Shown in pieces: positions 1,642-18,006 of a DNA stretch of 37,007 nt (position 1 is the first letter of the stretch; the number at the start of each line of letters is the position of its first letter). The DNA is from Myxococcota bacterium (lineage in GTDB: Bacteria; Myxococcota_A; Bradymonadia; UBA7976; UBA1532). Position numbers and translations under genes: made by a program. Location: NCBI GenBank assembly GCA_036337435.1, contig JAYZEG010000084.1, forward strand, positions 1 to 37,007, in the 5' to 3' direction. A model generated the notes under the pieces. The model made no database searches and had not been told where the DNA came from. It worked only from the letters and a program-made list of their open reading frames with translations.

Positions 1642-4600
1642 CTACGGGCCAACAAAAGGCTCACCATAAATCTCCAATTCCGAAATACCGCCTCCACTCT
1701 CATTCCAAGAATCGACGTAGAAACGAACGCGATTTCCAATCTGGCACTCATCGAACTGAGTGGTGATCCAACGGAGTGCTGGCAGCTCTGGTTCACTGCC
1801 TTCATCGACTTGAGTTTCGACATCGCCGTTAAAGATTGAAAGTCGCCAGTCCGCCGTGGAGTAGTAGTGAGTCCCACTGTTGTTGGTATTCATCCAACGC
1901 ACCGAACAAATCCGATGGGGCACCATCAAATTGACCTCAACATGCCCTTGGTTTCGCGCACGCAGCAGCCAATAGTCGTAGGCAACATCTGACTCTTGCG
2001 CGCTTCGAGTTCCGTGATATGCGCCGTCTGTGACGCGCTGCGCGTTATAATTATTATTGTAAACAGACGTCCCTGTCGCGCGGAGCCCAGCCGCGACATT
2101 TTCGCAGTCTGGACACGTATCGCATGCGTCGCCGATGCCATTATGGTTGGTATCCAGCTGTGCTGCATCCGGGTCATCAGGGCAAAGGTCATTGGGGTCA
2201 GCAATGCCATCCCCGTCACTGTCTTCAACCTCGAACTCAAAACGAAAATAACGATGGCTATTTTGCGCCCCACTGATCCAGCGAGCCCCCAACCCTAGGT
2301 TCATCAACGGCCAATCAACATTGTTCTCGTGCCGGCCTGCTGCCGCATGCCGAGTTGTATTCATCCACACACCACGCGGACTCGATACATCCGATAAATA
2401 AACATCATCAGCGATCAGAAACCCAAAAAAGTTATTCACGCTCTCATCGGCAAATTCGAGCTGAACCTCAGCCCCTTCGTGCTCCTCTAATACCGCGAAT
2501 CTTTGCCATTCCAACGTCGTGCTGTTGGCAGCAGTCCAGCTCCCCAAAAGTTCAGCGCGGTCACCTGCTTCATCGAGCCGCCAGAGGCGGGCACACGTAC
2601 AGCCGCCTTCATGCCCATCAGCATAAGCACCACCAGCGAGTCGAAAATGAAGAAAGCCTCGGTCCAATGTAAATGGCTTTGAATACAAATGCCCGAGAGC
2701 CTGCGCACCGCCTTCAGACGACGTGGCCGCATACGTCCCACCCAAACCACCAATGACTTGACCGAAACTGCCCACTGAATCGGGTCGTACACCCCAGGCA
2801 TTCCCAGTGGTTCGCCACGCATCTTGGTCGGGCAAAGCTTCACCCAAGCCAATAAAGTCTGCTCGGTCTTCAAAGTCTCCAAGCTGAGTTTCCGCAGCAC
2901 CGAGGTTCGTCCCGTTCCAGCCAAAGTCGGCACGATCCGAACCCACCCAACCGCCACGGCCTGTGACGTGATGAAAGCCGAGGCCTAAATCCAGTGCTGC
3001 AACGAACTTACGTGAGACACTGTCAAAATCCCCTTCGATCGCAAGCACATTGGTTCCAATCCGCGGCGTCACTCTCGCCGCCTCCGCGACTCGGTAGCGA
3101 TTACCCCGAGTGACTTCTTCACCATTAAAATAGGCGACGTATGGGTCTTGAGAATCGACCTGTAACAGGCCACTCAGTTCCTCTCCCAAGCCGGTAATCG
3201 CGATATTATCGAGCATGAAGGTATAGTCACCTTGGCCAACCACCTCGAAGCGGATCACTACGTCCTCCTGGCCCGCGAACGCGCTCAAATCCTGTTCAAG
3301 TCGCTGATACCCTTCGGATGAACGACGCGTGTTATCGCCAAAGCGTGCAAGTCGAATCGTCTGCCGTAAATCTCTCGACTCCACACTCAGGTGCAAACGT
3401 TGGTTATTGGCCATCGTCAGGAAATTTGCATCCATCTCGATGCGAGGATTAACGACGTTGGTAAAATCCAATCGGCCACCTAACTCCAGAACCGACTGCC
3501 CTCCCCAACCGTTTTCGTCTCTAGTCGCTTGCGCCAGCAAGCCTCGGCTGCCATCAACCCCCACTTGAGGTACGACCGTCCAGCTCCCACTGACCGGATC
3601 CCAAAGTGAACCGTCTTCAAAGTCATCCAGGTTGAGTGCATTCAGGTTATTGCGGCTCGGGTCTTCAATCAGTTCAACGCGCTCGATTTCAACGCCGGCA
3701 TCGGCCCCCGCCGTCCCAGTTTCAACCAAGAACTCCAAATTAAGTGCGCGGTCACCACGCACCTGATTCAAGGGGATATCGAAGCGGTCAACAACACCAC
3801 TCTGACCACCGGCATTTGAACTTATCAGCGTGTACTGTCTATCTATAAACTCGAGCGGCTTCAACAGGACACGCAAGGCTTGACTCCTCGCCCTTAACTG
3901 ATAGCGAGCAAAGACTCTCAGCAGCGGGTTTCGCAAACCGGTCAGGTCGAACGAGCCAATCCTTACTTTTGCCTTACTCGCCAGAGGCAGATTCTGCATC
4001 GTTGTGACGAGCCGACCTCGGCCATTCACGCCTCGCACCACGTCCCAACCTTCCGTCAGCATCTCCACTTTGTCAGACGGAAAATCCACCGTGAACGGGG
4101 TCAGCACTGGTGGTTCTGGCCGCGGCTTTTCTTCAATGGCCAAACTATCCAGGAAGACGGCCGGATTGGCGTGTCCCTCATGATAAAAAATAAAGCGAAT
4201 CCGAACGTCTGGGTCTCCAACCTGTTCCAAAAGACTGATTTCCGATTTGGAGAACAGGGTGTTCCCGTCACCGCGCAGAAGCGCTTCCGTCTTGCCCGCC
4301 GCATTCTCCGGATCAATAACCACCTCAAGACGCTGTAATCCTCGCAATGCTGCGCCCGTCCTCGACCAAACGACCAGCCGTGGGTCGCGGGTCGCTCGAA
4401 GGTCGATTCCCCAGCGTAGCTCGATAATAGAAGTCCCCTGTTTAGCCGGCCCAGCGGGCAAGGTTGCCGCAAACTCTGGCGTCCAAGCCGGACCGCCAAG
4501 CGTCCAGCCGTTCTCAGCGACACGCCAATCCTCTAGACTGTCGAACTGCTCTCTAAACGGTATACCAACAGACGGCGGTCTCGGGTTTTCATCCACCGTA

Positions 4601-6681
4601 ATTTCGTCAAAGGACAGGCGCCCAAAACCACCTTGCCCGGTCATTCGAAAGCGAAGTCGAACACCATCCCGCCCTTCGAATCCCCTCAAATCGAAGGTGT
4701 AGAGTTCGTACCCGTTTGGGAGTGTCCGGTCCGCATTTCCAGACCCTACGACACGGAAGGAGTCGCGGAGATTACGATCCACGAATACGTCGACGAAGAA
4801 AGCCTGGTTCGCCTGTCGCCTGACCCAAAATGTCAGCCGAGGCCGCTCACTGCGCGTGAGATCTATTGGAGGCGAGTTGATGGCCACAATCTGCGTCCGT
4901 TGATTGTTCCCTTCGACAAGTCCGAAGTCACCTTCTTTAGCCGCCGACTCGTCGTACACCCATCGTCCACTCTGCTCCCACCCAGCAATGGGATTACAAT
5001 CGTCTACGCCGTCTTCACACTCGAAATCTTCATAGAAAAAGAGCAATTCGCAGACGTCTCCGGGAGGGCCTCCGAAGGTGTTCGCCTGATCCGCGTTACT
5101 CAAAAATGGACAATTGTCGTCGTCATTATTCACCAAGTCGCCATCAATATCATCGTCGCATCGGTCCCCAATGCCATCTCCATCGGCGTCATCCTGTGCG
5201 GGGTCGGGGATGCTTGGACAGACATCTAAATCACCGCATAGACCGTCTTCGTCGAGGTCGTTATCTCCATCGTTCGGGCACAAATCACACACATCCCCAA
5301 GCCCATCAGCATCGGTATCCAACTGGTCGGGATTTCTGAATCTCGGGCAGTTATCGGAGACATCACACACACCGTCCCGGTCCGGATCAGACCCCCCACC
5401 GAGCAGGCAGCCATCGCAAGCGTCACCTAAACCATCGCCATCTCGATCGCGTTGGTCTGGGTCTGGTACATCGGGACATAAGTCAATGTCATTACAGACG
5501 TTATCGCGGTCTGGGTCATTGGTCGCGTCCGCGGGGCAACGATCGCAGAAATCACCAAGCCCATCTCCATCGAAGTCTGCCTGTTCAGGATCTGCAACCG
5601 CTGGACACTTGTCGACTTCTCCACAAATCGAATCACCATCTTCATCATTGTTCAAGTCAAGCGGGCACAGATCGCAGCTGTCTCCAAGGCCATCCCCATC
5701 TAAATCAGACTGGTCCAAATTGGGAATATTGGGGCAGTTGTCTGCACCACCGCAAAAACCATCTTGGTCGCGGTCGTTGTCCCTATCGGTCGGACACGGG
5801 TCACACTCGTCACCCCGACCATCACCGTCCACATCATTTTGTTCAAGATTTGCGATATCCGGACAATTGTCTTCGGTTGCGCATAGCCCGTCCCCATCGA
5901 TGTCATCAAACATATCGGTCGGGCATGGGTCACAGACATTACCGAGACCATCTTGGTCGGTATCGGCCTGTCCCGGCTCCCATTCGAAGGGGCAATTATC
6001 GACTACATTGTCGACGCCATCACCGTCGACATCGGAATCACACTCATTGCCTATATTATCGTCATCGAGGTCTTCTTGCTGTGGGTTGGCAACCAATCGG
6101 CAGTTGTCGTCAACGTTGGCGACCCCATCGCCATCGACATCGACATCACATTCGTTGCCAAATCCATCGCCGTCGACATCATCTTGACTGGCGTTTAATG
6201 CATCTGGGCAATTGTCGTCATCATTATCAACGCCGTCTCCATCTCTATCTCGGTCACACGCGTCCCCACGGCCATCACCATCGAGGTCGCCAACTGCAAA
6301 CCGTGGGTCCAGAGGACACGCATCCTCGTCGTCAGCGATGCCATCGGCATCATCATCGTCGTCACACGCATCCCCGATGCCATCGCCATCGGTGTCAATC
6401 CGGAGTGGGTCCGGAACGAAGGGGCAGCCATCGGCTTCATCGAGGACACCATCGCCATCATCATCGTAGTCGCAGAGGTCGCCCTGCGAATCGCCGTCGA
6501 GGTCTTGCTGATCCGGGTTGTACACGGCCGGACAGTTATCTTCGGCGTCCGTTATGCCGTCATCATCGCGATCTAAATCGAAGCCGATATCAGGCTCTTG
6601 AGTCCCGGATGCGCCGCTCGAATCGTCACAGCCTGGCAGCAAGAATAAGATCAAAAACAATAGAAGACATTTACGTATCAT
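1642..6681 (-). CDS. Giant lipoprotein (1679 aa): thrombospondin type-3 repeats, four MAM/jelly-roll-like repeats, carbohydrate-binding-like modules and a C-terminal discoidin/F5-8-like domain
   Basis: Start moved to ATG 6681 (MIRKCLL), which overlaps the upstream stop as ATGA. Lipobox LLPG-C. It carries many DNCP..NPDQ.D.DGDG.GD.CD units and four ~150-aa repeats opening with (E/D)(D/Q)F(E/D) and containing IDL...P.L. The C-terminal VRFYVDSW...GGISELEIYG is typical of F5/8 type C domains. Confidence 0.88.
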   Translation of the reverse strand: MIRKCLLLFLILFLLPGCDDSSGASGTQEPDIGFDLDRDDDGITDAEDNCPAVYNPDQQDLDGDSQGDLCDYDDDGDGVLDEADGCPFVPDPLRIDTDGDGIGDACDDDDDADGIADDEDACPLDPRFAVGDLDGDGRGDACDRDRDGDGVDNDDDNCPDALNASQDDVDGDGFGNECDVDVDGDGVANVDDNCRLVANPQQEDLDDDNIGNECDSDVDGDGVDNVVDNCPFEWEPGQADTDQDGLGNVCDPCPTDMFDDIDGDGLCATEDNCPDIANLEQNDVDGDGRGDECDPCPTDRDNDRDQDGFCGGADNCPNIPNLDQSDLDGDGLGDSCDLCPLDLNNDEDGDSICGEVDKCPAVADPEQADFDGDGLGDFCDRCPADATNDPDRDNVCNDIDLCPDVPDPDQRDRDGDGLGDACDGCLLGGGSDPDRDGVCDVSDNCPRFRNPDQLDTDADGLGDVCDLCPNDGDNDLDEDGLCGDLDVCPSIPDPAQDDADGDGIGDRCDDDIDGDLVNNDDDNCPFLSNADQANTFGGPPGDVCELLFFYEDFECEDGVDDCNPIAGWEQSGRWVYDESAAKEGDFGLVEGNNQRTQIVAINSPPIDLTRSERPRLTFWVRRQANQAFFVDVFVDRNLRDSFRVVGSGNADRTLPNGYELYTFDLRGFEGRDGVRLRFRMTGQGGFGRLSFDEITVDENPRPPSVGIPFREQFDSLEDWRVAENGWTLGGPAWTPEFAATLPAGPAKQGTSIIELRWGIDLRATRDPRLVVWSRTGAALRGLQRLEVVIDPENAAGKTEALLRGDGNTLFSKSEISLLEQVGDPDVRIRFIFYHEGHANPAVFLDSLAIEEKPRPEPPVLTPFTVDFPSDKVEMLTEGWDVVRGVNGRGRLVTTMQNLPLASKAKVRIGSFDLTGLRNPLLRVFARYQLRARSQALRVLLKPLEFIDRQYTLISSNAGGQSGVVDRFDIPLNQVRGDRALNLEFLVETGTAGADAGVEIERVELIEDPSRNNLNALNLDDFEDGSLWDPVSGSWTVVPQVGVDGSRGLLAQATRDENGWGGQSVLELGGRLDFTNVVNPRIEMDANFLTMANNQRLHLSVESRDLRQTIRLARFGDNTRRSSEGYQRLEQDLSAFAGQEDVVIRFEVVGQGDYTFMLDNIAITGLGEELSGLLQVDSQDPYVAYFNGEEVTRGNRYRVAEAARVTPRIGTNVLAIEGDFDSVSRKFVAALDLGLGFHHVTGRGGWVGSDRADFGWNGTNLGAAETQLGDFEDRADFIGLGEALPDQDAWRTTGNAWGVRPDSVGSFGQVIGGLGGTYAATSSEGGAQALGHLYSKPFTLDRGFLHFRLAGGAYADGHEGGCTCARLWRLDEAGDRAELLGSWTAANSTTLEWQRFAVLEEHEGAEVQLEFADESVNNFFGFLIADDVYLSDVSSPRGVWMNTTRHAAAGRHENNVDWPLMNLGLGARWISGAQNSHRYFRFEFEVEDSDGDGIADPNDLCPDDPDAAQLDTNHNGIGDACDTCPDCENVAAGLRATGTSVYNNNYNAQRVTDGAYHGTRSAQESDVAYDYWLLRARNQGHVEVNLMVPHRICSVRWMNTNNSGTHYYSTADWRLSIFNGDVETQVDEGSEPELPALRWITTQFDECQIGNRVRFYVDSWNESGGGISELEIYGEPFVGP
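5050..6576 (-). repeat. Thrombospondin type-3 (Ca-binding DxDxDGxxDxxD) protein repeat array, about 19 units
   Basis: Counted by eye in the translation (NCPAV, GCPFV, ACPLD, NCPDA ... NCPFL). The units are diverged at DNA level, so this is an old protein-level array. Confidence 0.85.
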
Positions 6682-9600
6682 GGTCGTTGCCAACTCACCC
6701 TTACACGCTGCAACAACGGCAGCACATCATCACTCTGGCGGCTTAAACGTACTTCCGCCTCCAACCATCTGTTCTGTGGGGTATAACCAGACTCTAAATT
6801 TGCGGCGGGAATTCGATACGGACTCTCGAAACTTCGCCCGGACCAAGCCGCCGCCGTCAGGCCGGCCCGCGTCGGCGCCGTTCGAACGCGCACGTCGACA
6901 AAGGCACCATTGGGGATGGCACCATCCCAATTGATCAAATCCCAAATTACATCATCTGAGCCACCATCGACTCGCACACTCCAGCGGCCCGTGCTGAGCG
7001 TGATGGTCAAAAGCTGAATGCCCGTCATATCACTATACGTATACAGCGCGGGCAATCCCTCGGTGCGACACAGCTCTACACCATTGGTGTTGAAACGGTA
7101 GGCTCGACTGGTGCTGATGCCAAAAATGCCGCCCTCCGCATCAACTGCGACCCCCATGAGTGAATCGCCTACGGGCACAGTGAGCAACAAATCGCCGTCT
7201 GGATTGTACTTAAATAAAGCCCGGTCCTCCCATCCTGCTGCCCAGATATTGCCATCAAGATCAACTGCGATCCCTCGGGTTCGCCCGCGCCCAGAATGCC
7301 GAAACAATTCGAGTTCATGGGTTCGACCATCGATCCGGCCAACATATCCCCCTGGTTGCCACACGCCGTACCAGACGTTGTCTCGCTTATCGATGGCCAT
7401 TCCGTAGAAGGACACGTTCAAAAAGCTCTCCTGGTCGCCGTCCATGAGCCTTCCGTTACGGGGTACGATGCCAACCACAGAGCCATCGCGGGTGTCTACC
7501 TTAGTCGGTGAGCCCGCGATGCCCGACGTCCACAAGAACCCTCGGGAATCGACGGCCGCACCATAGGCAGGCGAGGCCAGCTGGACCTCTTGCAAGATTC
7601 GACAATCGGGGAAACCATCAGGCGCATCAGACGGGACGACCTCGTTCCCGCTGACACGGTATATCTTTGTTCGATCCCAGCTTCCCAACCACACGTTGCC
7701 GTCTTGGTCTAGCGTGACTGCCCGAACAGCGACCCCATTTCGCGACGTGCCGGTAATCCGAGCTCGACAGATGAGGCTGCCATCTCGATCGAGGTGAACC
7801 GCGTTGCCCTGGGTGTAGTCAGAGGCGTCTGCATCAGACCAGGCCCGATTTCCAACCCAAACACTGCCGTCGACTGCGACCGCCGTTCGAGACGGATAAA
7901 ACCCGTAGCTCGGGAATGAATCCATCACCTCACAGGTACGGGTGTTGATCTTGATGACTTCACGATTGTTTGTTGCTGCGACCCAAAGAACCGAATCCCC
8001 GGTTGCCTCAGCAGAGCCAAGAGTGAGCGCATTGGGGTCATCCGGTGCGGGCATTACATTTACCGATGACCCTCGCTCCCACTCATTTGCCTCATCAAAC
8101 TCAAGCTCGAAGCAGCTTTGACCGCAGAGGCCGCAGAAATTGACGGTTCCCTCGTCGACGAGGCCATCGCAATCGTTGTCCACGCTGTCGCACTCTTCAG
8201 CGGGCAGTGGGCCGCACTGACCACACGCGTTGCTGACACCTTCATCAACACGCCCGTCACAATCATTATCCGTACTGTCGCAAACCTCAGGCGGTGCCAG
8301 TCCACAGGTCCCACACGCGTTGCCATCAGCCGGATTTTCATCGACGACTCCGTCACAGTCGTCATCTCGCGCATTACACGTCTCTAACGTCGGCCCCACC
8401 CAGTCGCGGCAACCTGCTTCATCACCCTGCTGCAGCAACTGGCCTGGAATACATTGAAATTGACCATATCGACATTCACCGATGCCAGCGGTCTCAGGTG
8501 GGCCGCCGTAACACGGTTGAGGCGGCCCTTTCACGCAGCCACAGATCTCTTCAACCCGGCCATCGCAATCATTGTCTAGCCCGTCCCCACAAACTTCTTC
8601 CGCTTGTTCTGGTCTACACCCGCACGGCCCCCTGACGATCTCGTCGGTCTGACCATCACAATCGTCATCAATTTCATTGCATACCTCGTCACTGGGCACG
8701 CAGGCTTCACCTGGGCAGCCTTCGTCGACAGTCCCGTCACAATCGGTATCAAGCCCATCACCACAAACCTCGTCTGCTGGCAAAACTTCGCCTTGGCAGG
8801 CGGCCAATTGCCCATCTGCGCAATCGGAAAAGCCGCCACGGCAAGTCCCCACACCAAGGTGCTTCGGCAGCCCGCTGTAACACGGTTGTTGTAAACGCCC
8901 ACTGCAATCACAGGTCTCATCGATACGCCCGTCGCAATCGTCATCTAACCCATTGCCAAAATCCCCAATCGGCCCATCACAGCGCTCTCTCGGCGCTGCA
9001 CCGCATTCACCGCACGCATTGGTCTGCCCCTCGTCGATCAGGCCGTCGCAATCATCGTCGATTGAATTACATTGTTCTTGCCCAGGTAGAATTTGTCCCA
9101 CACAGCTGGCCCGTCGCCCTTCCGAACAGACCCAATAACCAGGACGACATGCCGCTACCCCTTTGCTCCCTGCCGGCCCGGTGTAGCACGATTCACGAAC
9201 GCTCTCTAAACACTGACATTCTTCGTCTGTCGAGCCATCGCAGTCATTATCGAGTCCATCACAGAACTCGTCCGGCTCGAGCCCGCAGCCGCCACAGGCA
9301 TTGCGAACGCCTTCGTCCACCTGCCCATCGCAATCATTATCTCTGAGATCACAGGTTTCGGCTTCGAGATCGCCACACCGGCCGCATGCGTTCAGAACCC
9401 CCTCGTCGGTCACCCCATCGCAGTCATCATCTGTACCGTTACAGAGCTCAGAAATCGGAGTCCTGGACTCTTCGCACGGTCCAAGCGCGCCATCTCGGCA
9501 TATCCGAAAACCACTTCGGCAGCGGCCCACGCCAACTGTCGCTTCATCGGCTGGGTAGCAAGGCACAGACTCGCCATCAGTACATCCACAGCCCTCATCA

Positions 9601-9914
9601 ACACGTTCATCGCAATCGTTGTCAAAAGCATCACCGCACTGCTCTAATTGACCAGTATTTGCCGATGCATGGCGGTCATCACAATCTGGGCCAGCCTCAC
9701 AGCCTTGCCCGTATCCATCTCCATCCAGATCGATACATCTCGCACCGGGGACATCAGAATCGACTTGTGTTTCGGGCATCATACGAACGCCCGTATCCGG
9801 GTCAATGGATGCACTGGGACCGGTTAACCCGCCGCCGCCGCTATCGTCACCAGAACAACTCCAAGCGAAGCCCAACACCAGGTTAATGAGAACGATTCTT
9901 ATTCTGTAAGACAT
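6678..9914 (-). CDS. Large Cys-rich lipoprotein (1078 aa) with MopE-related putative metal-binding repeats and a C-terminal Vgb/NHL-like beta-propeller
   Basis: Likely start ATG 9914 (MSYRIRIV, G-rich RBS upstream). Lipobox-like FAWS-C. It has 12 D-x-D-C-D-(G/E)-x-x-(D/E)-E units, propeller blades AVAVDGSVWV, LDQDGNVWL, AVDSRGFLW, AIDKRDNVW and AVDLDGNIW, and a YTYSDMTG motif. Confidence 0.85.
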   Translation of the reverse strand: MSYRIRIVLINLVLGFAWSCSGDDSGGGGLTGPSASIDPDTGVRMMPETQVDSDVPGARCIDLDGDGYGQGCEAGPDCDDRHASANTGQLEQCGDAFDNDCDERVDEGCGCTDGESVPCYPADEATVGVGRCRSGFRICRDGALGPCEESRTPISELCNGTDDDCDGVTDEGVLNACGRCGDLEAETCDLRDNDCDGQVDEGVRNACGGCGLEPDEFCDGLDNDCDGSTDEECQCLESVRESCYTGPAGSKGVAACRPGYWVCSEGRRASCVGQILPGQEQCNSIDDDCDGLIDEGQTNACGECGAAPRERCDGPIGDFGNGLDDDCDGRIDETCDCSGRLQQPCYSGLPKHLGVGTCRGGFSDCADGQLAACQGEVLPADEVCGDGLDTDCDGTVDEGCPGEACVPSDEVCNEIDDDCDGQTDEIVRGPCGCRPEQAEEVCGDGLDNDCDGRVEEICGCVKGPPQPCYGGPPETAGIGECRYGQFQCIPGQLLQQGDEAGCRDWVGPTLETCNARDDDCDGVVDENPADGNACGTCGLAPPEVCDSTDNDCDGRVDEGVSNACGQCGPLPAEECDSVDNDCDGLVDEGTVNFCGLCGQSCFELEFDEANEWERGSSVNVMPAPDDPNALTLGSAEATGDSVLWVAATNNREVIKINTRTCEVMDSFPSYGFYPSRTAVAVDGSVWVGNRAWSDADASDYTQGNAVHLDRDGSLICRARITGTSRNGVAVRAVTLDQDGNVWLGSWDRTKIYRVSGNEVVPSDAPDGFPDCRILQEVQLASPAYGAAVDSRGFLWTSGIAGSPTKVDTRDGSVVGIVPRNGRLMDGDQESFLNVSFYGMAIDKRDNVWYGVWQPGGYVGRIDGRTHELELFRHSGRGRTRGIAVDLDGNIWAAGWEDRALFKYNPDGDLLLTVPVGDSLMGVAVDAEGGIFGISTSRAYRFNTNGVELCRTEGLPALYTYSDMTGIQLLTITLSTGRWSVRVDGGSDDVIWDLINWDGAIPNGAFVDVRVRTAPTRAGLTAAAWSGRSFESPYRIPAANLESGYTPQNRWLEAEVRLSRQSDDVLPLLQRVRVSWQRP
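8110..9735 (-). repeat. Cys-rich array: 12 DxDCDG-type units interleaved with 4 CY-x(7-8)-G-x-G/A-x-CR-x-G modules
   Basis: Counted by eye in the translation of the 6678..9956 ORF. Confidence 0.8.
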
Positions 9915-10143
9915 AGCACCCCCGTCGACCGACAAAACCCGGTCAAAAGTCATCATACAAAAAAACGAATTTGCATCGACAGTTTACCGGAATCGACCTT
10001 TAAAATCTCATAATTATTTCGCTTTAATGGCCAGAGATAATTTGCGGTAAAACCGACGATGTCGGATAGGGTGGCCAGTTCGAACAACAGTGCCTAAAAC
10101 CCCTGTCATTACGGGCAAATTAGACCCGGTGTCTCAAGCTAGT

Positions 10144-12384
10144 TCATCGCGCTGAGAAAATGAATGGATAGACAATTTGCACACTGCCACCCTTCGGCTT
10201 CGGGAAGCGAAGCCCTCTAATCACCCTTAAGACACAAGATGCGACCTTTGCATTACCCAACGTGTTTAACTTGACGCGCGTCCCAGACACGCGGCCGTTT
10301 ACCTGGATAGTCCACTGGGCCGTCACTTTACCATTGAGCTTCTTTTTGCTTCTCATAAGCTCCTTCTCGTAGCAGCGCTGGATCCGTCCAGTGGCCCGAG
10401 AAATGACCCGAAAAACTTCTGCTTTACTCAATGAGCCTCGCACTCGAGCCAGAGCGCGGACGCTGCGTACTTTGCCACGGATTTTGCCGGCCCTGGCTCG
10501 ACCAGCCAACCGACCCGTTCCACCAGCGACGCCGCTCTTCGTCCCGACAACACCGCCTCCGGAGCCACGCGCAACGATTCGATCCCCGGGGCCACCTCGT
10601 GTCAGGCTACCCATGATGTTGGTGCCACTCTTGCCCTTCGCGTTGGCAACTGCATCCAAATTTGACCTTATCTGAGATAGGCTTGGTGCCGAATTGTCAT
10701 TGGCTTTCATCACCTGCTTCAATAGCGATTGCGCAGTCGATGCCCCCGTCGATCTTGCCCTTTTGATGCGCTTATTCAATTTCGAGCGAAGGTTATTGCT
10801 GATGACGGGTTTAGGCTCGGTGGTCTTCACCTTTTTGACGACCTTTTTCTTTTTAGGCTTTTTCTTTTTTTTCTTTGGCTTGACCTTCGGCTTTTGCTTC
10901 TTTTTCTTTTTAGGCTCCGGCTTCTTTTTCTCTTTGAGTTCATCGAGATTAATCTCGCGTGCGAAGAGTTCTTTCTCATCTATCTTCGTAGGAAGCTCAA
11001 CATTTGCCGTGATAAACATCGACGCAGCGATACCGAAACCGAAATGGCTTCCCAGCGAAATCATAATGCACGCCGCCCACAGTTTCCATGGCAACCGTTT
11101 GCCAATAGAGCGCCCACTGGTTCTCGCAGCCCGGTCAACTCGAATCCGATACGAGCTATTCTGAAAAGCAAATTCCGCTCGGTCGCCCACATCTAAGGAC
11201 AGCTGTCCGGATGCGGATTCACTTTGCCCAAGACGAAAATGCTCTCCCTTTACACCATCAGGTAGCGTAATCGTCGCCCCCTCGTACGACAGTTTGGCTA
11301 TGGTTCGCCCACCTTGAGCAAAACTATCTCCTGGATACAGAACGGTGACCGACCGGACGACACCAAACGCGACCTCCACCACCTCCAGAACAGGTGCCGA
11401 TTCAGGATCGCCGGTTGCATTGGTATCAGAAAGGGAGCCGAGCATTTCATCCAGTGAGAGTGGACCTCGAGGGCCCGCCTCTTGGGGACGGGCCAACGAC
11501 CCATCGGCGTGTCCTGCTGTTTTGGGGGGTGATTCCGGCGCAGGCTTTGGCTGCTCTCGAACTGGCACACCGTTGTAGAGTGCCGACAAAATAGAGACCG
11601 GGTCGTCGCTCGCCGACACCTCGTCCCAACGCTCGAGCCGGCTAGGATAGTGCGTCTCCAGCCAGCCTCTTATCTCCTCGTGCTTCTCGGCGTAGAGACC
11701 CTCGGTGCGCAAATGGTCTAAGCAATCCTCGGCGTCGGGAAAGCGCCCATCATTCATTTCATTAATGAAACCGACGAGGCCAGTCCATGAATCATCCCGC
11801 TGTGATGGCAGCAACTTCACCGCCGCGGCCGCCAAGCAGCGTAAATCTGAAACCGTAGTGGACAACTTGGAAGCACGGTGCGCTGCAACAGCACTCATTG
11901 GCTGCCCGACCAACTGACTAAAACCACTTACGCCGACAACGATATCATCGAGTCCGAACGGTCCATTGGTTTGGCCAGTTTGATGCAAGGTATCCAGCGC
12001 CGAGACGATATCGATGACAATCTGCCAAATCAGGAATTTCGGCAGGCTCCCATCGCCGCTGTAAACAGCTGACATATGAAGCTGCTCTAGACGTTCACTT
12101 GGCGTAAAAGCGGCGTAATATCCACCCTTTGCAACGGCAAGAACTCGCTCAAACCCAGGGTGACCTGACGCGATCGAGCGTTTCGTGGCCGCCTTGAAGA
12201 CTGCAGGCAAATCGCCAGCCAGTTCATCTTGAACCTCGTGATGAAGGCAGAGTGCGCCATCTTCGTTTCGAACCAACGACGTGATTAAGCCGCCCGATTC
12301 GTAGACGACACCCAAAATGTCAAAGGTGGATTCGCTCACTAGCGTCTCTTGCCCTTCCACTTCTTCTTTTTGCTGCGTTTCCAA
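10144..12384 (-). CDS. GltG-like / AgmX-PglI C-terminal (TonB-C-like) inner-membrane protein with an N-terminal degenerate kinase-like domain
   Basis: The C-terminus GSLSKAEVFRVI...IQRCYEKEL...GKVTAQWTI...CVLRVIRGLRFPKPKGGSVQIVYPFIF matches the AgmX/PglI/GltG C-terminal domain. There is a single TM segment (LWAACIMISLGSHFGFGIAA) and Lys/Pro- and Gly-rich periplasmic linkers. The start is uncertain: TTG 12384, GTG 12360, or GTG 12339 (coupled to the upstream TAG). Confidence 0.85.
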   Translation of the reverse strand: METQQKEEVEGQETLVSESTFDILGVVYESGGLITSLVRNEDGALCLHHEVQDELAGDLPAVFKAATKRSIASGHPGFERVLAVAKGGYYAAFTPSERLEQLHMSAVYSGDGSLPKFLIWQIVIDIVSALDTLHQTGQTNGPFGLDDIVVGVSGFSQLVGQPMSAVAAHRASKLSTTVSDLRCLAAAAVKLLPSQRDDSWTGLVGFINEMNDGRFPDAEDCLDHLRTEGLYAEKHEEIRGWLETHYPSRLERWDEVSASDDPVSILSALYNGVPVREQPKPAPESPPKTAGHADGSLARPQEAGPRGPLSLDEMLGSLSDTNATGDPESAPVLEVVEVAFGVVRSVTVLYPGDSFAQGGRTIAKLSYEGATITLPDGVKGEHFRLGQSESASGQLSLDVGDRAEFAFQNSSYRIRVDRAARTSGRSIGKRLPWKLWAACIMISLGSHFGFGIAASMFITANVELPTKIDEKELFAREINLDELKEKKKPEPKKKKKQKPKVKPKKKKKKPKKKKVVKKVKTTEPKPVISNNLRSKLNKRIKRARSTGASTAQSLLKQVMKANDNSAPSLSQIRSNLDAVANAKGKSGTNIMGSLTRGGPGDRIVARGSGGGVVGTKSGVAGGTGRLAGRARAGKIRGKVRSVRALARVRGSLSKAEVFRVISRATGRIQRCYEKELMRSKKKLNGKVTAQWTIQVNGRVSGTRVKLNTLGNAKVASCVLRVIRGLRFPKPKGGSVQIVYPFIFSAR

Positions 12385-12800
12385 GAACGCTGCGGTAACT
12401 TCTTCGCCTTTGTCTCGCCTTGCTTAATTTTGGTTTCGGCCGCCTTCCGGAGCCCCTTGGCTGCAGCAATTTTTGAGGCTTTCGGTTTATCGGCGGGACG
12501 CTTTAAAACCGGCCAAACAATGCGGTCTAACTCATCACGCTCAAGCTTCAACAGCGGTGGCAGTTTCCGAGGCACTCGATTGAACAAATAGACCGCACCC
12601 GCTGCGCGTTCGCCCTTGATAAGTCGGCCATCAAACTCCATCCGATTCGAACGGCGCAAAACGGGCCCTGCCGCCCCATCTGACGACGACTTCTTCTGAG
12701 TCACCGCATTGGTGGTTACAGTCGACTTTTGGGCATGTGCCACACCAGCCATGGTCATCAAACCGACGACCGTGATCCAATTCATTTTCATCAGACTCAT
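12339..12800 (-). CDS. GltF/CglF-like small periplasmic protein with a Lys-rich tail
   Basis: Signal peptide ending AHA-Q. The core MEFDGRLIKGERAAGAVYLFNR...LLKLER resembles the GltF/CglF pattern (idF....I.Ge....g.yl..R....f..Li..R). It sits directly before the GltG-like gene and has an ATGA overlap with the upstream gene. Confidence 0.7.
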   Translation of the reverse strand: MSLMKMNWITVVGLMTMAGVAHAQKSTVTTNAVTQKKSSSDGAAGPVLRRSNRMEFDGRLIKGERAAGAVYLFNRVPRKLPPLLKLERDELDRIVWPVLKRPADKPKASKIAAAKGLRKAAETKIKQGETKAKKLPQRSWKRSKKKKWKGKRR

Positions 12801-13303
12801 TGTTTCATCACCACCAGTCGTGTCTTGTCGAATCCTGCCTCGCGAGCGGAGCGTAGTACGAGATGAATCGCCCTATATTCCAAACGCTTGTCAGCCTGCA
12901 GCATGACAACAGATTCTTCGTCTGGGTTCTTAGAATTCCGCTGCCTCGCTTCTAAAATTGCGCTCAAAGCATCGACAAGCTCAGGAATTCGCTCCGCCTC
13001 GTAGTTCTCGGCGGACGGCTGTCCATTCTGAAAGTCAGTGATTCGTGTCGGTTTCATCTGTCGTGTTTCTTTATCAAGCGCATATAAAACAACGCCGTCC
13101 AATGTCACAGCCACGTTTGCCGCAGGCTTAAAAACCCCACGGGCACTGCTACTCGGCAGATCCGCATCGTCATTCTTTTTGAACTCGGTGTTCTCTGAGT
13201 CGAAATTGACCAGCAAAAACAAAAGAATGATCGTGAACATATCCAACAAAGAGGTGAGCATCAGCTTTGGTTTGGATTTACCCGAACGGCCTCGTATCTT
13301 CAT
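12797..13303 (-). CDS. ExbD/TolR-family motor subunit (AglS-like); TM aspartate retained
   Basis: TM segment LMLTSLLDMFTIILLFLLVNF, then LPSS and a C-terminal VMLQADKRLEY...AREAGF ExbD fold. ATGA overlap with the upstream ExbD gene. Confidence 0.9.
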   Translation of the reverse strand: MKIRGRSGKSKPKLMLTSLLDMFTIILLFLLVNFDSENTEFKKNDDADLPSSSARGVFKPAANVAVTLDGVVLYALDKETRQMKPTRITDFQNGQPSAENYEAERIPELVDALSAILEARQRNSKNPDEESVVMLQADKRLEYRAIHLVLRSAREAGFDKTRLVVMKQ

Positions 13304-13878
13304 TCGTCCCCTCCCCCATCAGTGCCCGCTCCATCCTCCGCATCAGGCTCAGCAAGATTTCGTTTGGTAAGGGACGAGACGGGAAAGAGTGGCTCGAACT
13401 CTTTGCCTTCCGCGGCCTGATCCGGCGGCAGTTTACGCTCGCGGCTCGCGTCAAGGACAGACACGACATCAGCGTAACGAGTCTTTGCGTCTGGGACGAT
13501 CATCACCGTATCGCTCTTTGGATACTCCAGTTTAATTTTGTGCAGGTGGGCCGTCAGCTTATCCAATGGGCGTTGACCGAACCCTCCCATCAGAGTGAGA
13601 TCGAGGCGACTGATCTGTTCCTTTGCTAGGCCATCGCCCGACCCGGATACACTCAACCGGTCAGGTAGAATCTCGATGCTCATTGTGACCTTGACATCCT
13701 TAGGCGGTTTTTGGTCACTCGCAGGCACGTTATCGGGGATCGACGTCGCAATGGTACCCAAATGGTAGAATGCTGCCCCAAGCATCAGTGCTGGAATCAG
13801 GATCACCATCAGGTTCATCACCGGCAGAAGGTTCATTTCTTCAGCCTCTTTACGCGCTTTTCGCCAATTATCGAGCAT
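13300..13878 (-). CDS. ExbD/TolR-family motor subunit (AglQ position); conserved TM Asp replaced by Asn
   Basis: TM segment EEMNLLPVMNLMVILIPALML and C-terminal TVMIVPDAKTRYADVVSVLDASR...LFP, typical of deltaproteobacterial ExbD/AglQ. It follows the ExbB-like gene. Confidence 0.88.
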   Translation of the reverse strand: MLDNWRKARKEAEEMNLLPVMNLMVILIPALMLGAAFYHLGTIATSIPDNVPASDQKPPKDVKVTMSIEILPDRLSVSGSGDGLAKEQISRLDLTLMGGFGQRPLDKLTAHLHKIKLEYPKSDTVMIVPDAKTRYADVVSVLDASRERKLPPDQAAEGKEFEPLFPVSSLTKRNLAEPDAEDGAGTDGGGDE

Positions 13879-13887
13879 AGACGTCGG

Positions 13888-14769
13888 CTAGGCCTCTGTT
13901 TCCCGGGAAACAAAGTCGTTGTTCCCCTCAAACACGGTCATTAGGTTGGTTGCGCCAGCTTCCATCTCGTTCATAATTTCTTCTTGTCTCTCTGACAGAA
14001 GGTGGTGGAAGAAGAGAAGTGGCACAGCCGCGACGATCCCCGCCGCTGTCGTGTACATAGCCTGAGAAATACCATCCGTTAGCTTTGCTTGTTTTAAGGC
14101 TGCAGGTACGTTTGGGTCGCCAAAAGCAGCAAAGGCCGCGATCAGGCCGAAAATGGTACCCAGCAACCCGAGAAGGGTCGAACTATTCGCCAAAAAGCTG
14201 AGTAGGCCTATTCTCTTGTTGAGGACGGGTAGCTTCTCTAGCATTTTGTCCTCAATGGCGGTCTCGATTTCTTTCCGTGGCCGGCAATTCGACGCTTTCA
14301 ACAATGCGATCTGAGCAACATCACACAGCGGGTGCCCCGAGCCTTTCTTGGTGAGTTTGACTGCGTTCAGGTAACGCTGGTCACCCCCTCCCTTTGCCGC
14401 GTTGGCGATCTCATCTTTAAAACTCTTAAAGTTCAACGACATCCCTCGATACAAGGTATTGCCCCGTTCTAAGAAGATGAACAACCCGATCAATGAAACG
14501 AAAAAGATAACCCACATCATTGGGCCACCATCGTTCATCATGGTCAGCAAGCCGCCCTCGTCCTCTTTAGGCACCGCCGGCTTGGGAGCCTCAGGTGCAG
14601 ACGCTGATTTGGCTGGCGCGGCCGCAGCCGGAGTCGGACTGGCGGCTGGAGCCGCTTGTTCTGGCTGAGCTGCTACTTTATCAGTTTTGGCCGCCCCGCC
14701 CTCTGGTGCTTGCGCGAGGCCCAGTGCTGGCAGCACCATCAGTGCGCTGATTAACGCCCACTTTTGCAT
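13888..14769 (-). CDS. MotA/TolQ/ExbB proton-channel protein (AglR-like) with a signal peptide and Ala/Pro-rich N-terminal extension
   Basis: Motifs GGPMMWVI...FLER, STLLGLLGTIFGLIAAF and GISQAMYTTAAGIVAAVP. AGGGGGA RBS before ATG 14769. Confidence 0.93.
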   Translation of the reverse strand: MQKWALISALMVLPALGLAQAPEGGAAKTDKVAAQPEQAAPAASPTPAAAAPAKSASAPEAPKPAVPKEDEGGLLTMMNDGGPMMWVIFFVSLIGLFIFLERGNTLYRGMSLNFKSFKDEIANAAKGGGDQRYLNAVKLTKKGSGHPLCDVAQIALLKASNCRPRKEIETAIEDKMLEKLPVLNKRIGLLSFLANSSTLLGLLGTIFGLIAAFAAFGDPNVPAALKQAKLTDGISQAMYTTAAGIVAAVPLLFFHHLLSERQEEIMNEMEAGATNLMTVFEGNNDFVSRETEA

Positions 14770-14891: not shown

Positions 14892-16829
14892 TCACTGAGG
14901 ACCGCGCCTTGGATAATGCACGAACTCTTCATCGAGCACATTAAGCATAGCACCGCTCGGCTCTCGCGTCGTCGGTGGCACATATCGGATCGGGACACTG
15001 GCCACACGGAACGGGCCGGCGGCTTGTGGCTGTGCGCTGGGTGCCTCGGCAAAGTATAACGTCAGGTCATTTTCTTCAGTCAAAGTCGGGATGAGTCGAA
15101 TGTTTCGAACGGTATAGCCCAAACAATGACGACTCCTAAAAACGACGCGGGTTCTCTCGGTATAGTCTCGCGGCGGCAATTGGGCAAAGTCGACCTCCAA
15201 ACGGACAAATCGTCCGTCGTCCCCTTGCACAGGCGCATAACTGGACGACGGAATTGTGTAAATTGTCCCCGTGTCCGGACTGAGGATAACCGGTGGACCC
15301 GCCTCTTCGTCGAGCGCATCCCACCAGCTCAAAGTTGCCGGCTCATCACCAACCGCCGCCGTATATAGAAACGTGCCAACACCAGCCGTAGACCCACCCC
15401 CCACGTGCAGAATGTTGAGGCCAGTCAATTGTTCGGGGCCATCTAAACTGGCTTCCGTTTGAATTCCTAAATCGTCCATTGTGTAACGATAAGCCGACCC
15501 GAGGCGAGCCGGCAAATCGGTGACCCTTGGGTCGGTATGTTCACGCACCTCATCGCCATTTGCGACACCGTCGCCGTCGTCATCTTCCACATCATCTCGA
15601 TTTAGATAGTCGGTCCCAAATCGGAACTCTAATCCATCGGGCAGCCCATCTCCATCTGTATCGACCATGGATGACTCCGTCCCCAAAACAGCCTCATCAC
15701 AATCAGACAGCCCATCTCGGTCGGCATCAAAGCTTGGCCTTTCGAGCTCAGAGCAGCTTTCAGGTTCGTCGGCAAGCAAAGGATCGGTGCCTGTCAGGGC
15801 TTCCACCATGTCTCCGATGCTATCGCCGTCTGTGTCCCCGAGCCGCGGATCTGTTCCTGCCCTTGACTCAGTTCGGTCGCTCAAACCGTCTCCATCACTA
15901 TCGGCGAGCATCTCCCCTTCTTCGACGACGGCATTTTGGTTGGTCACAATGAAATGCTTCGCCCTGAGTGTATTACGCCTATCGAATAACCTGATATCAT
16001 CGAGGTTCATTGAGGCCGACGTCTCAGCCCGTGCATAACGCCCACCCCCAACGAAGGCCATCCGCTCGTGAGTCCGCGCCGTCTGTGCATTCTCCTCATC
16101 ATCGGTCGATGCAGCGAGGTGCATCACGTGCAGTTCGAAGCTCCCAGCACCCGACTCTCCCGCCTGGTCCCGAAGAATCGCAACCCGGTTGGCATCAACT
16201 TGCTGCTGACAGAGATATTCAGGTTCATCGCCTGCGTTGCGGCAGCTGATGTCCCTCTCCGCACAGCAGTTTCGTCGGGAAACCAAGGGGACCGGTAATC
16301 CGGCGTTGACCACCACCACGACATACTGGGTCAGTCCTCGCTCACCGGCGGTGATATTTGCAAGGTCATCTTGGATGATATTGCCAGCGACTCTGATACC
16401 CTCATTGTAATCTCGGCAATAACCACCCTCTGCACAGGGTTCAGGAATCGACAACTGGTTTATCGCGTTAATCAACTCGCCAGGATTCCGGCTGAAAGCC
16501 TCATCGGTGGGTGCCATTTTTTTTGCTCTTGGACCGTATCCAACAACAGCGACACTGTATTCGGGGCGTTGAAGCACCGAATTGACCATATTGGACAGTG
16601 CAACGATTCGCTCACCCGCTGGATCGAACTCCGAATAAAGGTCCCCATTGGCTTGGTCAACAACGAAAACGACGCGCACAGGGAAGCGTGCGAGTTCCGG
16701 GTCTTCAGTGCAAACAACGCCTTTAACCGCAACTCGATTCGCCTCGATGGGTGGATTTCGCGCGTCGTAAAGACCCGCTTTCGAACACGCCGTTACCAGC
16801 ACGATGATGGCCAATCCTATTCGTCGCAT
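14892..16829 (-). CDS. VWA-domain lipoprotein with thrombospondin-like DxDGDG repeats (MtsD/CglB-like); degenerate MIDAS
   Basis: Likely start ATG 16829 (MRRIGLAIIVLVTA-C). It shares the G.VCT..P....FPV(R/K).lFVvD N-terminus with the two plus-strand paralogues and has multiple DSDGDGLSD/DTDGDG units. Confidence 0.82.
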   Translation of the reverse strand: MRRIGLAIIVLVTACSKAGLYDARNPPIEANRVAVKGVVCTEDPELARFPVRVVFVVDQANGDLYSEFDPAGERIVALSNMVNSVLQRPEYSVAVVGYGPRAKKMAPTDEAFSRNPGELINAINQLSIPEPCAEGGYCRDYNEGIRVAGNIIQDDLANITAGERGLTQYVVVVVNAGLPVPLVSRRNCCAERDISCRNAGDEPEYLCQQQVDANRVAILRDQAGESGAGSFELHVMHLAASTDDEENAQTARTHERMAFVGGGRYARAETSASMNLDDIRLFDRRNTLRAKHFIVTNQNAVVEEGEMLADSDGDGLSDRTESRAGTDPRLGDTDGDSIGDMVEALTGTDPLLADEPESCSELERPSFDADRDGLSDCDEAVLGTESSMVDTDGDGLPDGLEFRFGTDYLNRDDVEDDDGDGVANGDEVREHTDPRVTDLPARLGSAYRYTMDDLGIQTEASLDGPEQLTGLNILHVGGGSTAGVGTFLYTAAVGDEPATLSWWDALDEEAGPPVILSPDTGTIYTIPSSSYAPVQGDDGRFVRLEVDFAQLPPRDYTERTRVVFRSRHCLGYTVRNIRLIPTLTEENDLTLYFAEAPSAQPQAAGPFRVASVPIRYVPPTTREPSGAMLNVLDEEFVHYPRRGPQ

Positions 16830-17740
16830 ACGCCCCCACTCGGTACCAATTGGCAACGGCCGCTGACACACGTCTGCCCGACCACACATGTGACATTGCG
16901 GCACGCGCGGGTCAGTGCCAACGTCGCTGCTCCCGATGGCCGTATCTCACGAGTAACAACCACCACGCCATCGTTGAGCCCTTGCGCCCTTATCCACGTG
17001 TTGCCTTCACCCTCGGGTAGCGTTCTCGTCGCCCTGACTGTCGGCCCTTCAGGAACGGCGTAATCGAGTGGCATCCCGGCATCTGCTACACCGGCATCTC
17101 CCTCAACATTGACCCCCGCATCTGGGGGCGTCTCCGGCTCGGCAATGCGCTCCGGCAAACACACACGTGACGTCACGTTTTCATCATCAAAGCGGCTGCG
17201 TTGGACACAGGAATAACCTGGTCGGCACCCGTTCCCAGGTAATGCATCGAGATCACATTCTTGAACGCATGCCCCATCGGGCAGGGCGAGGCCACCAATA
17301 CAGAAAACCGCTGGTGTGCCAGCTCGGTTAGGGCATGTTCTCGCGCATTCTAGGCTACAATGGCCGCGGGGATACCCCGCGTCATCCGAAAAGCAAACCG
17401 CGCGAGAGTGTCCACACTCGCTCGAGTCCATACACGGACCACCCAACCAGCCCGCATTCACGCCTGGATCTTCGACCACGGGATCTGCGCCCATGTCGCC
17501 CGTTGGCACCTGGATCTGTGTTTGGCCACCATCGGGAATGGCATCAGCCTGTGGGAGTACAGCCAACTCAAATACGCCTGTCCATGCCTCCGTGCGGTCT
17601 TCATTCAATACGGTCAATCGCACTGCTTGAATCTCATCTGGGACAACCAGGTCGCCACAGATCTGGACCTCGGTGCCAGACGTGCTCGACTCCGAGCATG
17701 CGCTCGCCAGCATCGCGATTATGAGTACATATCGTGTCAT
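16817..17740 (-). CDS. Cys-rich lipoprotein of unknown function (myxobacterial Cys-rich module)
   Basis: Lipobox LASA-C. Module GGPCMDSSEC...C...GYPRGHCSLEC...C...C...GACVQEC...GCRPGYSC, with DAG-rich linkers. Confidence 0.78.
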   Translation of the reverse strand: MTRYVLIIAMLASACSESSTSGTEVQICGDLVVPDEIQAVRLTVLNEDRTEAWTGVFELAVLPQADAIPDGGQTQIQVPTGDMGADPVVEDPGVNAGWLGGPCMDSSECGHSRAVCFSDDAGYPRGHCSLECARTCPNRAGTPAVFCIGGLALPDGACVQECDLDALPGNGCRPGYSCVQRSRFDDENVTSRVCLPERIAEPETPPDAGVNVEGDAGVADAGMPLDYAVPEGPTVRATRTLPEGEGNTWIRAQGLNDGVVVVTREIRPSGAATLALTRACRNVTCVVGQTCVSGRCQLVPSGGVCDE

Positions 17741-18006
17741 GCCCCCAGATTACTTGCGACAGCATCCTCAGTAAACAGCATTCGACATGAGGACATCGGC
17801 TCTGGCATGGGTCACACCGTTCCTGACCCTCCAACTGCGCTTTCGTGACCAAATTTTCGAGTGAATTGGACTCCGCTTCTTTTTCAAACCATGGCGCTGG
17901 AAAAAGACAAAATACCAGGGTAACATTGCCGTGGACTGACAGTGCGGGTAGGGCTCTGTCACAGTCTGTCGGGGCAATCCACGTGAGATGAAGGGGCGAA
18001 AAGGTC
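17741..18006. promoter_or_regulatory. Divergent promoter region between the two arms of the locus
   Basis: 266-bp non-coding gap between head-to-head genes. It has A/T tracts and an imperfect inverted repeat at 17925-17978. No clear -35/-10 or sigma54 match was found. Confidence 0.55.

Follow-up and report, generated by a model that had tools for sequence, protein, structure and literature searches.

The locus and its focal gene

The stretch of DNA analysed here (37,007 nucleotides, hereafter the window) is contig JAYZEG010000084.1, positions 1 to 37,007, of assembly GCA_036337435.1, a metagenome-assembled genome of a myxococcotal bacterium (4.38 Mb in 95 contigs, 87 % complete). On its minus strand lies a gene whose predicted product joins a degenerate kinase-like head to a C-terminal domain of the type found in GltG, a component of the Agl-Glt gliding machine of Myxococcus xanthus. 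The longest open reading frame (ORF; 10144-12384) extends from a TTG at 12384 to the stop at 10144 and encodes 746 aa; residue numbers follow this frame throughout, and 15 has to be subtracted for the 731-aa form starting with a GTG at 12339 (10144..12339). The shorter form is the likely product and the ORF probably starts at this GTG, since the codon shares one base with the stop of an upstream 153-aa ORF (taGTG), and since the homologues P0002 and P0003 as well as a syntenic orthologue of 730 aa at the metagenomic locus L017 all begin at the same Val.

Along the protein, a pseudokinase is followed by an FHA-like domain, a transmembrane (TM) helix, a Lys/Pro-rich linker, and an AgmX/PglI domain that resembles the C-terminal domain of TonB, all features mapping to the minus strand. 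The pseudokinase domain occupies residues 17-272 (11569..12336), as delimited by an AlphaFold2 (AF2) model, structural matches, and a profile comparison with PDB sequences. It is connected by a low-confidence linker (residues 273-330, 11395..11568; predicted local distance difference test score, pLDDT, of 52-69), at the end of which lies the conserved stretch LSLDEMLGSLSDTNATGDP.SA, to a modelled FHA-like β-sandwich placed directly before the membrane helix (residues 331-419, 11128..11394). The single TM helix coincides with a hydropathy peak at about residues 434-460 (11005..11085). A second membrane helix at 331-350 was considered and rejected, as the hydropathy peak there corresponds to β-strands of the FHA-like domain modelled with pLDDT above 90. 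On the periplasmic side, a linker rich in Lys and Pro, with 32 of 90 residues being Lys, and a Gly-rich stretch (10432..11004) lead to the C-terminal AgmX/PglI domain (10153..10431), which matches NF033768 with 97.9 bits at a cut-off of 40. This match bears out the fusion to a GltG/TonB-like energy transducer that had been proposed in a first-pass annotation made from the sequence alone. The GltG equivalog model NF033760 gave 105.1 bits versus a cut-off of 650, aligning to residues 479-745 only, and the TonB models TIGR01352 (19.3 versus 27.1 bits) and PF03544 (14.3 versus 24.6 bits) remained below their cut-offs on the C-terminus. PglI and AgmX are the old names of GltG and GltJ, respectively, and GltG is described as the TolA/TonB-like partner of the AglRQS motor (PMC3169522).

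Fold and active site of the N-terminal domain

Conventional family models are silent on the head of the protein: residues 1-270 have no match in Pfam or NCBIfam, with Pfam remaining empty even at E = 10, and the locus is not among the 54 Pkinase matches of the genome (PF00069; gathering cut-off 31.7 bits). The first-pass annotation had nonetheless read Ser/Thr kinase subdomains into this region, and the strings on which it relied (GHPGFERVL, GYYAAF, ERLEQL, LIWQIVIDIVSALDTLHQTGQTNGPFGLDDIVVGVSGFSQLVG, SDLRCLA...KLL, and RFPDAEDCL) are all present in the translation of 10144-12384 (minus strand); the segment 11630-12340 to which they were assigned covers the kinase-like core. Structure prediction agrees with that reading. 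An AF2 model of residues 1-300, computed from an alignment (A1) of the query, eight phmmer hits and P0002, reached a pLDDT of 89.2 and a predicted TM-score (pTM) of 0.83 and displays a kinase-like order of strands and helices, namely a bilobal kinase core (about residues 17-231) followed by three extra C-terminal helices (235-271) that bear the conserved motif W241-L242...R249...W253. Foldseek returned at least 500 PDB matches with this model, all at E ≤ 0.001, with protein kinases throughout among the matches listed, including M. tuberculosis PknB and PknI. By VIA-align, 1000 of 1000 chains scored Z ≥ 8, the best being SPAK (5d9h_B; Z 21.1, root-mean-square deviation (rmsd) 2.9 Å over 229 residues), and the pseudokinase STRADα (Z 19.6) and PknB (Z 18.8) were also recovered. 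The A1 sequence profile, which does not depend on the model, reached SPAK among PDB sequences at E 6.2e-5; kinases or pseudokinases account for 58 of the 60 matches listed, the other two being acetolactate synthases. The N-terminal domain thus models as a protein-kinase fold, the outcome on which the earlier reading had been made to depend, and we regard its resemblance to Hanks-type kinases as real and well beyond chance.

The active site was mapped by a HMMER alignment to SPAK and by a MAFFT alignment that included both canonical kinase domains of P0024. The β3 Lys of the VAIK motif is replaced by His48 (12241..12243; context LCLHH) in the MAFFT alignment, in a column that is unconserved across the family (H/L/V/Q/A), and the αC Glu by Ala66 (12187..12189), with Ala or Gly in all family members. 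Both alignments place N140-G141-P142 (11959..11967) at the HRD motif and G160-Q161-P162 (11899..11907) at DFG. Gly144 stands at the position of the catalytic-loop Lys and Asp147 at that of the catalytic-loop Asn, and the Gly-rich loop keeps its first Gly only. The activation segment falls short of that of P0024 by about 26 residues and lacks APE; a short helix takes its place and bears the family signature SA(V/L)AAHR. The αG region is about 30 residues shorter as well. The αF Asp (Asp180) is retained, and Asp147, His134, His169-Arg170 and Asp180 are polar residues conserved near the former active site. The loss of HRD and DFG, which had been noted at first pass, was accordingly found to extend to the β3 Lys, the αC Glu and most of the activation segment. 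With a kinase fold predicted and the catalytic motifs lost at the sequence level, the domain meets the description of a pseudokinase. It does not belong to the GLW pseudokinase family, which is characterized by GLW in place of HRD and poly-Leu/Trp at the β3 Lys position (PMC12599244), as the focal protein has NGP, not GLW, at HRD.

Sequences of this kind are rare. Searched exhaustively with phmmer, 1.84 billion representatives yielded 9 hits at E ≤ 0.001, one of which (P0011) is a repeat protein that matches the WL..R..W stretch only and whose relatedness is doubted; a word-based homologue search retrieved 1 protein among 6810 candidates, and a query with the single protein found it present in 3 of 61 related genomes. 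Across 401 genomes of the phylum, the A1 profile scored 20 at E ≤ 0.001, with strong matches in 2 only (G000 and G001); two candidates were scored per genome, so that weak relatives such as that in G016 were missed. Among ten weak loci viewed by eye, at least four have canonical Gly-rich loops and resemble ordinary kinases. Pattern searches with A5 gave 31 matches in genome contigs, none of them confirmed, and 1 confirmed match out of 224 in metagenome contigs, namely the near relative at L017.

The pseudokinase is 75 % identical to its L017 orthologue (nonsynonymous divergence, dN, 0.17; synonymous divergence, dS, saturated), 46 % to P0003, and about 28-37 % to P0009 and P0012, and it is under purifying selection. 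In the comparison with L017, identity amounts to 89 % for the FHA-like domain, 100 % for the TM helix, and 97 % for the C-terminal domain.

Two related loci show a different gene structure. At L019 (contig C8 of G001, a genome of the same genus), where the contig ends inside the pseudokinase, the orthologue is spread over two frames: a 71-aa frame (P0010) ends the pseudokinase part and terminates 2 nt inside the start codon of an ORF of 479 aa (P0026) that holds the linker, the FHA-like domain, the TM helix, and the C-terminal domain. A frameshift error, a split gene and a pseudogene are all conceivable explanations. In another genus of the family, locus L016 (contig C15 of G016) carries a divergent, GC-rich relative in which HGA takes the place of HRD; the kinase-like head of this relative and its FHA-like/TM/C-terminal part lie in different overlapping frames (604-2043 and 2-1525, minus strand). 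DNA of the focal locus was found in marine and seawater metagenomes of 12 studies, and one metatranscriptome run contained two small contigs at ≥ 99 % identity (10806-10971 and 13341-13474); we do not claim expression from these, because DNA carry-over is possible in this run.

Membrane-proximal domain, paralogues and genomic neighbourhood

Residues 331-418 were modelled as an all-β sandwich (AF2 pLDDT 84.5). Neither Pfam nor NCBIfam recorded an FHA hit in the protein. With this part, nothing reached E ≤ 0.001 in Foldseek, where FHA domains occupy the best rows (E 0.036-0.3), headed by the FHA domain of APLF at E 0.036. A Foldseek-independent VIA search of 48,161 chains had 3poa as its best match (Z 6.5, rmsd 2.7, 78 residues) and none at Z 8, with “FHA” in the title of 15 among the best 26 rows and the FhaA FHA entry 3oun among the matches (Z 5.6). 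The match is weak but consistent, and the model suggests an FHA-like domain. A motif check against the N-terminal FHA domain of a GltG paralogue encoded on contig C28 found none of the phosphothreonine-binding motifs GR, SxxH and NG in it, and it has a deletion at the position of the ‘tIG’ strand in the central domains of the paralogues. GltG itself has been described with a ‘central FHA’ domain immediately ahead of the TM helix that was likewise found at a Foldseek E of about 1e-2 and is predicted to lie on the cytoplasmic face of the AglR5 pentamer, with the N-terminal FHA domain predicted to bind GltI (PMC11761067). Judged from the models, the focal domain would correspond to this central FHA, its match being of a strength similar to that reported for GltG. 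A complex prediction of the pseudokinase (16-290) with the FHA-like domain scored 0.00, which is no answer and counts neither for nor against binding.

The genome contains 11 matches to the AgmX/PglI domain, 8 of them over the cut-off. The C28 paralogue combines an N-terminal FHA domain (66 bits) with a central domain, a TM helix and the C-terminal domain, scores 352.6 bits with the GltG model, and is part of a GltC-GltD(-like)-GltE-GltG cluster (L010, C28:108000-118506). A paralogue on contig C63 (465 aa) is GltG-like and has no N-terminal module at all; its locus (L011, C63:14000-26000) contains a GltE-like gene, TolQ, two small ORFs and the gene for this headless protein, and adjoins a polysaccharide export gene. 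Those on C62 and C24 are GltJ-like, with a zinc ribbon (ZnR) and a GYF domain. From this comparison, which includes the FHA-bearing C28 protein of the same genome, the pseudokinase takes the slot of the N-terminal FHA domain. As the FHA-like domain before the membrane helix has been retained, however, one module and not the whole cytoplasmic part was exchanged. The proposal made at first pass, that a dead kinase fold has replaced the phospho-binding cytoplasmic input, therefore holds for the N-terminal FHA slot and not for residues 331-418.

A further paralogue, on contig C49 (L009:4331-6046; C49:14330-16045), comprises 571 aa and starts with a degenerate Pfam Pkinase domain (34.2 bits) that has HGA at HRD and GFG at DFG, followed by a GYF-like stretch, one TM helix, and a C-terminus that resembles AgmX/PglI weakly (23-27 bits). 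Its make-up suggests a GltJ-type protein in which a pseudokinase replaces the zinc ribbon, and P0022 and P0023 are homologues of the same architecture. Recent duplication from this protein as the origin of the focal pseudokinase was rejected (pairwise BLASTP E 0.19).

Among the 11 proteins nearest to the focal C-terminal domain, three carry the same pseudokinase (P0002, P0003 and P0012), three a second, more distant kinase-like head bearing the WL..R..W helix (P0015-17), two have TPR heads (P0013 and P0014), and three are short forms. Hence, the same fusion does recur among the closest relatives, and kinase-like heads on such proteins are not confined to it, as indicated by P0015-17 and by P0025, which combines Pkinase with TonB_C. 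The kinase-like status of P0015-17 relies on the MAFFT alignment and on Atlas feature scores of 0.95-0.97, given that both an hhalign comparison of the focal family with their N-termini (E 0.0023, probability 12 %, 56 columns) and the search of PDB with the A3 profile of their lineage (kinases at E 0.2-2) were weak. P0013 and P0014, both of metagenomic origin, continue after the TPR head (TPR_19, 28.9 bits in P0013) with the same FHA-like, TM, and AgmX/PglI chassis. When the C-terminal domains were placed in a tree, proteins with the pseudokinase, with the second kinase-like head and with the TPR head clustered (support 80/92, not starred), and the C49 paralogue grouped with GltJ-like proteins. 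Taken together, such motors seem to have had their input exchanged from lineage to lineage.

The focal gene is the last in a co-directional set with overlapping ORFs, namely a MotA/TolQ/ExbB gene, two ExbD/TolR genes, a small ORF, and the focal gene, all on the minus strand. The MotA/TolQ/ExbB proton-channel gene (13888..14769; Pfam MotA_ExbB, 81.7 bits) encodes a protein whose MotA_ExbB domain spans residues 159-270 and which has an N-terminal extension of about 80 residues, signal-peptide-like at its start and then Ala/Pro-rich. The two ExbD/TolR genes (12797-13303 and 13300-13878) match Pfam ExbD with 48.7 and 48.3 bits. The small ORF (12339..12800) is the 153-aa frame mentioned above, for which no family was found; its N-terminus resembles a signal peptide and its tail is rich in Lys. 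It shows translational coupling with the focal gene and is conserved at L017 as a 158-aa ORF, and its product may be a GltF-like periplasmic partner of the TonB-like domain. The sequence thus supports a putative bitopic GltG/TonB-like transducer located behind TolQ/ExbB and two TolR/ExbD genes, and gene adjacency suggests that it is coupled to this TolQ/TolR-type motor.

Elsewhere, the window encodes an OMP_myx_plus barrel, a GltC-like TPR protein (36 bits versus a cut-off of 450), a TPR protein of 1078 aa, and several TSP3/VWA proteins of the MtsC/MtsD/CglD kind. Giant secreted proteins are encoded on both sides of the motor operon (1642-9956, minus strand, and 14892-25053); among them are a TSP3-repeat protein of 1683 aa (MtsC, 454 bits versus a cut-off of 350), a 1092-aa protein with MopE repeats and a β-propeller, and three TSP3/VWA proteins with sub-threshold MtsD and CglD matches. 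All of these are candidates for adhesins that the machine would carry as cargo. The window yielded neither a kinase gene nor one for a PP2C phosphatase.

Proposed function and its alternatives

In the studied system, the cytoplasmic heads of GltG (FHA) and of GltJ (ZnR-GYF) link the motor to a regulatory platform. Overall, GltG (PglI, MXAN_4867) of M. xanthus is also the known protein that the focal one resembles: both are bitopic and have an FHA-like domain by the membrane helix, a periplasmic linker that is long and disordered, and an AgmX/PglI C-terminus, and both are associated with a TolQ/TolR-type motor and have GltC-like and GltD-like TPR proteins encoded nearby (PMC3169522, PMC11761067). 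They differ at the N-terminus, where GltG has a canonical FHA domain (its residues 1-114) and the focal protein a pseudokinase of 255 residues, as well as in the position of the motor genes, which in the focal case lie directly upstream in the same operon, and in the central domain, which in the focal protein lacks the ‘tIG’ strand.

With respect to the head, the closest parallels are found in other machines. EssB/YukC, which scaffolds the T7SSb, is a pseudokinase inserted monotopically in the membrane, its motifs degraded and its activation loop reduced (PMC12599244). The resemblance is one of architecture and presumed function: according to its description, it shares with the focal protein a cytoplasmic kinase fold devoid of the Gly-rich loop, the three catalytic motifs and most of the activation loop (PMC12599244), but it belongs to another machine and phylum and has neither a TonB-like periplasmic domain nor an FHA-like domain in cis. 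MviN of M. tuberculosis (Rv3910, ActPs3 family) likewise carries a dead kinase on an envelope membrane protein with an FHA-linked function (PMC12599244); there, however, the pseudokinase is C-terminal to a flippase-like protein, the FHA partner acts in trans, and the motif replacements are its own (VALT and Lsidhpsr; PMC12599244, Table 1). Similar in general plan are P0025 (Pkinase, TM helix and TonB_C, with the degenerate motifs YHG and GFG) and Atlas clusters that combine Pkinase and TonB_C (scores 0.87-0.88, leads only), such as one of 81 members with Pkinase in 100 % and TonB_C in 81 % (score 0.88, lead only). These proteins differ from the focal one in being detectable by Pfam Pkinase and TonB_C, and no FHA-like domain was noted in them.

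A literature search at the level of listings found no published account of a Hanks-type pseudokinase on a GltG/TonB-like protein. A 2025 review of bacterial pseudokinases, which lists seven families, mentions TonB 0 times (PMC12599244), and passages that describe the G3-G5 paralogues of M. xanthus (NfsG and others) name no kinase-like domain. As far as these searches reach, the fusion is apparently unpublished, in keeping with the first-pass remark that this architecture is not known from described systems. It is not unique, though, since the general order of a kinase-like domain, a TM helix and a TonB-like domain recurs in P0015-17, the C49 paralogue, P0025, and the Atlas leads.

On balance, we consider it reasonably probable that the pseudokinase, without catalysis of its own, serves a motor-coupled, GltG-type transducer as a docking or scaffold module at its cytoplasmic end, a reading that draws on the precedents of EssB/YukC and MviN and on the predicted binding of GltI by the N-terminal FHA domain of GltG. 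The GltG-type (TolA/TonB-like) bitopic transducer would be part of the TolQ/TolR-type motor whose genes lie just upstream. Contact with the TolQ pentamer would be made by the membrane helix together with the FHA-like domain next to it, and in the periplasm the AgmX/PglI domain would bind partners, either periplasmic or in the outer membrane, that belong to a Glt-like envelope machine. The pseudokinase might then recruit, or respond to, a cytoplasmic partner and thereby position or gate the motor-transducer unit. In this proposal, the absence of nucleotide binding, the scaffold role, the TolQ contact and the identity of the partner are what we infer.

Several observations weigh against parts of this picture. 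The fold is a predicted model obtained from an alignment of 10 sequences, and among the folded domains of the protein none evolves faster than the pseudokinase (75 % identity versus 89-100 % for the others). Assignment to a Glt-type machine draws on weak matches (GltG 105 bits versus 650, GltC 36 versus 450), and an ordinary TonB-type uptake system is a possible alternative. Moreover, Asp147 stands at the Asn position, and P0009 and P0012 have Asp at the DFG position; judged from the sequences, some family members with these remaining Asp residues might, though the chance is remote, bind a metal or a nucleotide.

Of the other explanations, regulation by phosphorylation fares best, although we would give it a rather modest chance. 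The dead kinase domain or the linker would then be the substrate of an active Hanks kinase, phosphorylation creating a docking site for an FHA protein or freeing an intramolecular contact. MviN is the precedent, PknB phosphorylating the tail of its pseudokinase and this tail recruiting FhaA (PMC12599244). Kinases are plentiful in the genome (54 Pkinase matches, 53 over the cut-off), and the conserved linker is Thr/Ser-rich (LSDTNATGDP), with T321 invariant in A4; the FHA-like domain in cis, however, has none of the GR, SxxH, and NG motifs, and the window contributes neither a kinase nor a PP2C phosphatase gene. Less likely still, the domain may be a dimerisation module whose N-lobes pair back to back, in the manner of PknB, MviN and YukC, and so hold two transducers or motor units together. 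This would be analogous to the back-to-back dimers of MviN and to the stabilization of homodimers by the EssB/YukC pseudokinase (PMC12599244), and PknB-type kinases are among the structural matches.

An atypical enzyme that has kept nucleotide binding or has gained AMPylation or glutamylation activity, as SelO or SidJ, seems highly improbable to us. Repurposed pseudokinases are known (PMC12599244) and Asp147, His134, His169-Arg170 and Asp180 are conserved near the former active site, but substitutions affect the Gly-rich loop, the β3 Lys, the αC Glu, the HRD Asp, and the DFG Asp alike, the β3 column is unconserved, and pseudokinases devoid of all three motifs nearly always fail to bind ATP (PMC12599244). 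That the head is a decaying and now functionless remnant of an active kinase fusion, as its status as the least conserved folded domain and the different frames of the pseudokinase part and the rest in G001 of the same genus could suggest, may practically be set aside in view of a dN of 0.17 with saturated dS, a confident and compact model, signature motifs kept down to about 30 % identity, and an intact frame in the window, L017, P0002, P0003 and P0012.

The finding bears on how Tol/Ton/Agl-type motors and transducers are controlled from the cytoplasm, which matters for gliding motility, spore-coat assembly and envelope transport. The presence of FHA, headless, and pseudokinase versions side by side in the same genome, together with close relatives whose head is a second kinase-like domain, TPR repeats or absent, points to modular, lineage-specific inputs, and the bacterial pseudokinase field gains a new family with a clear mechanical context, its seven listed families being without a TonB-type output. 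More speculatively, and in our view with the odds against it, fusions of a kinase fold, one TM helix and a TonB/GltG-type domain could constitute a general, undescribed class of signal-gated energy transducers in which the dead kinase acts as an allosteric switch. If so, a switch set by phosphorylation or by a cytoplasmic regulator would decide whether a TolQR-type motor engages its transducer, cytoplasmic signalling would directly control the delivery of force to the outer membrane, and one motor-coupled chassis would accept heads of the FHA, pseudokinase, TPR and ZnR/GYF types as interchangeable plugs for its input.

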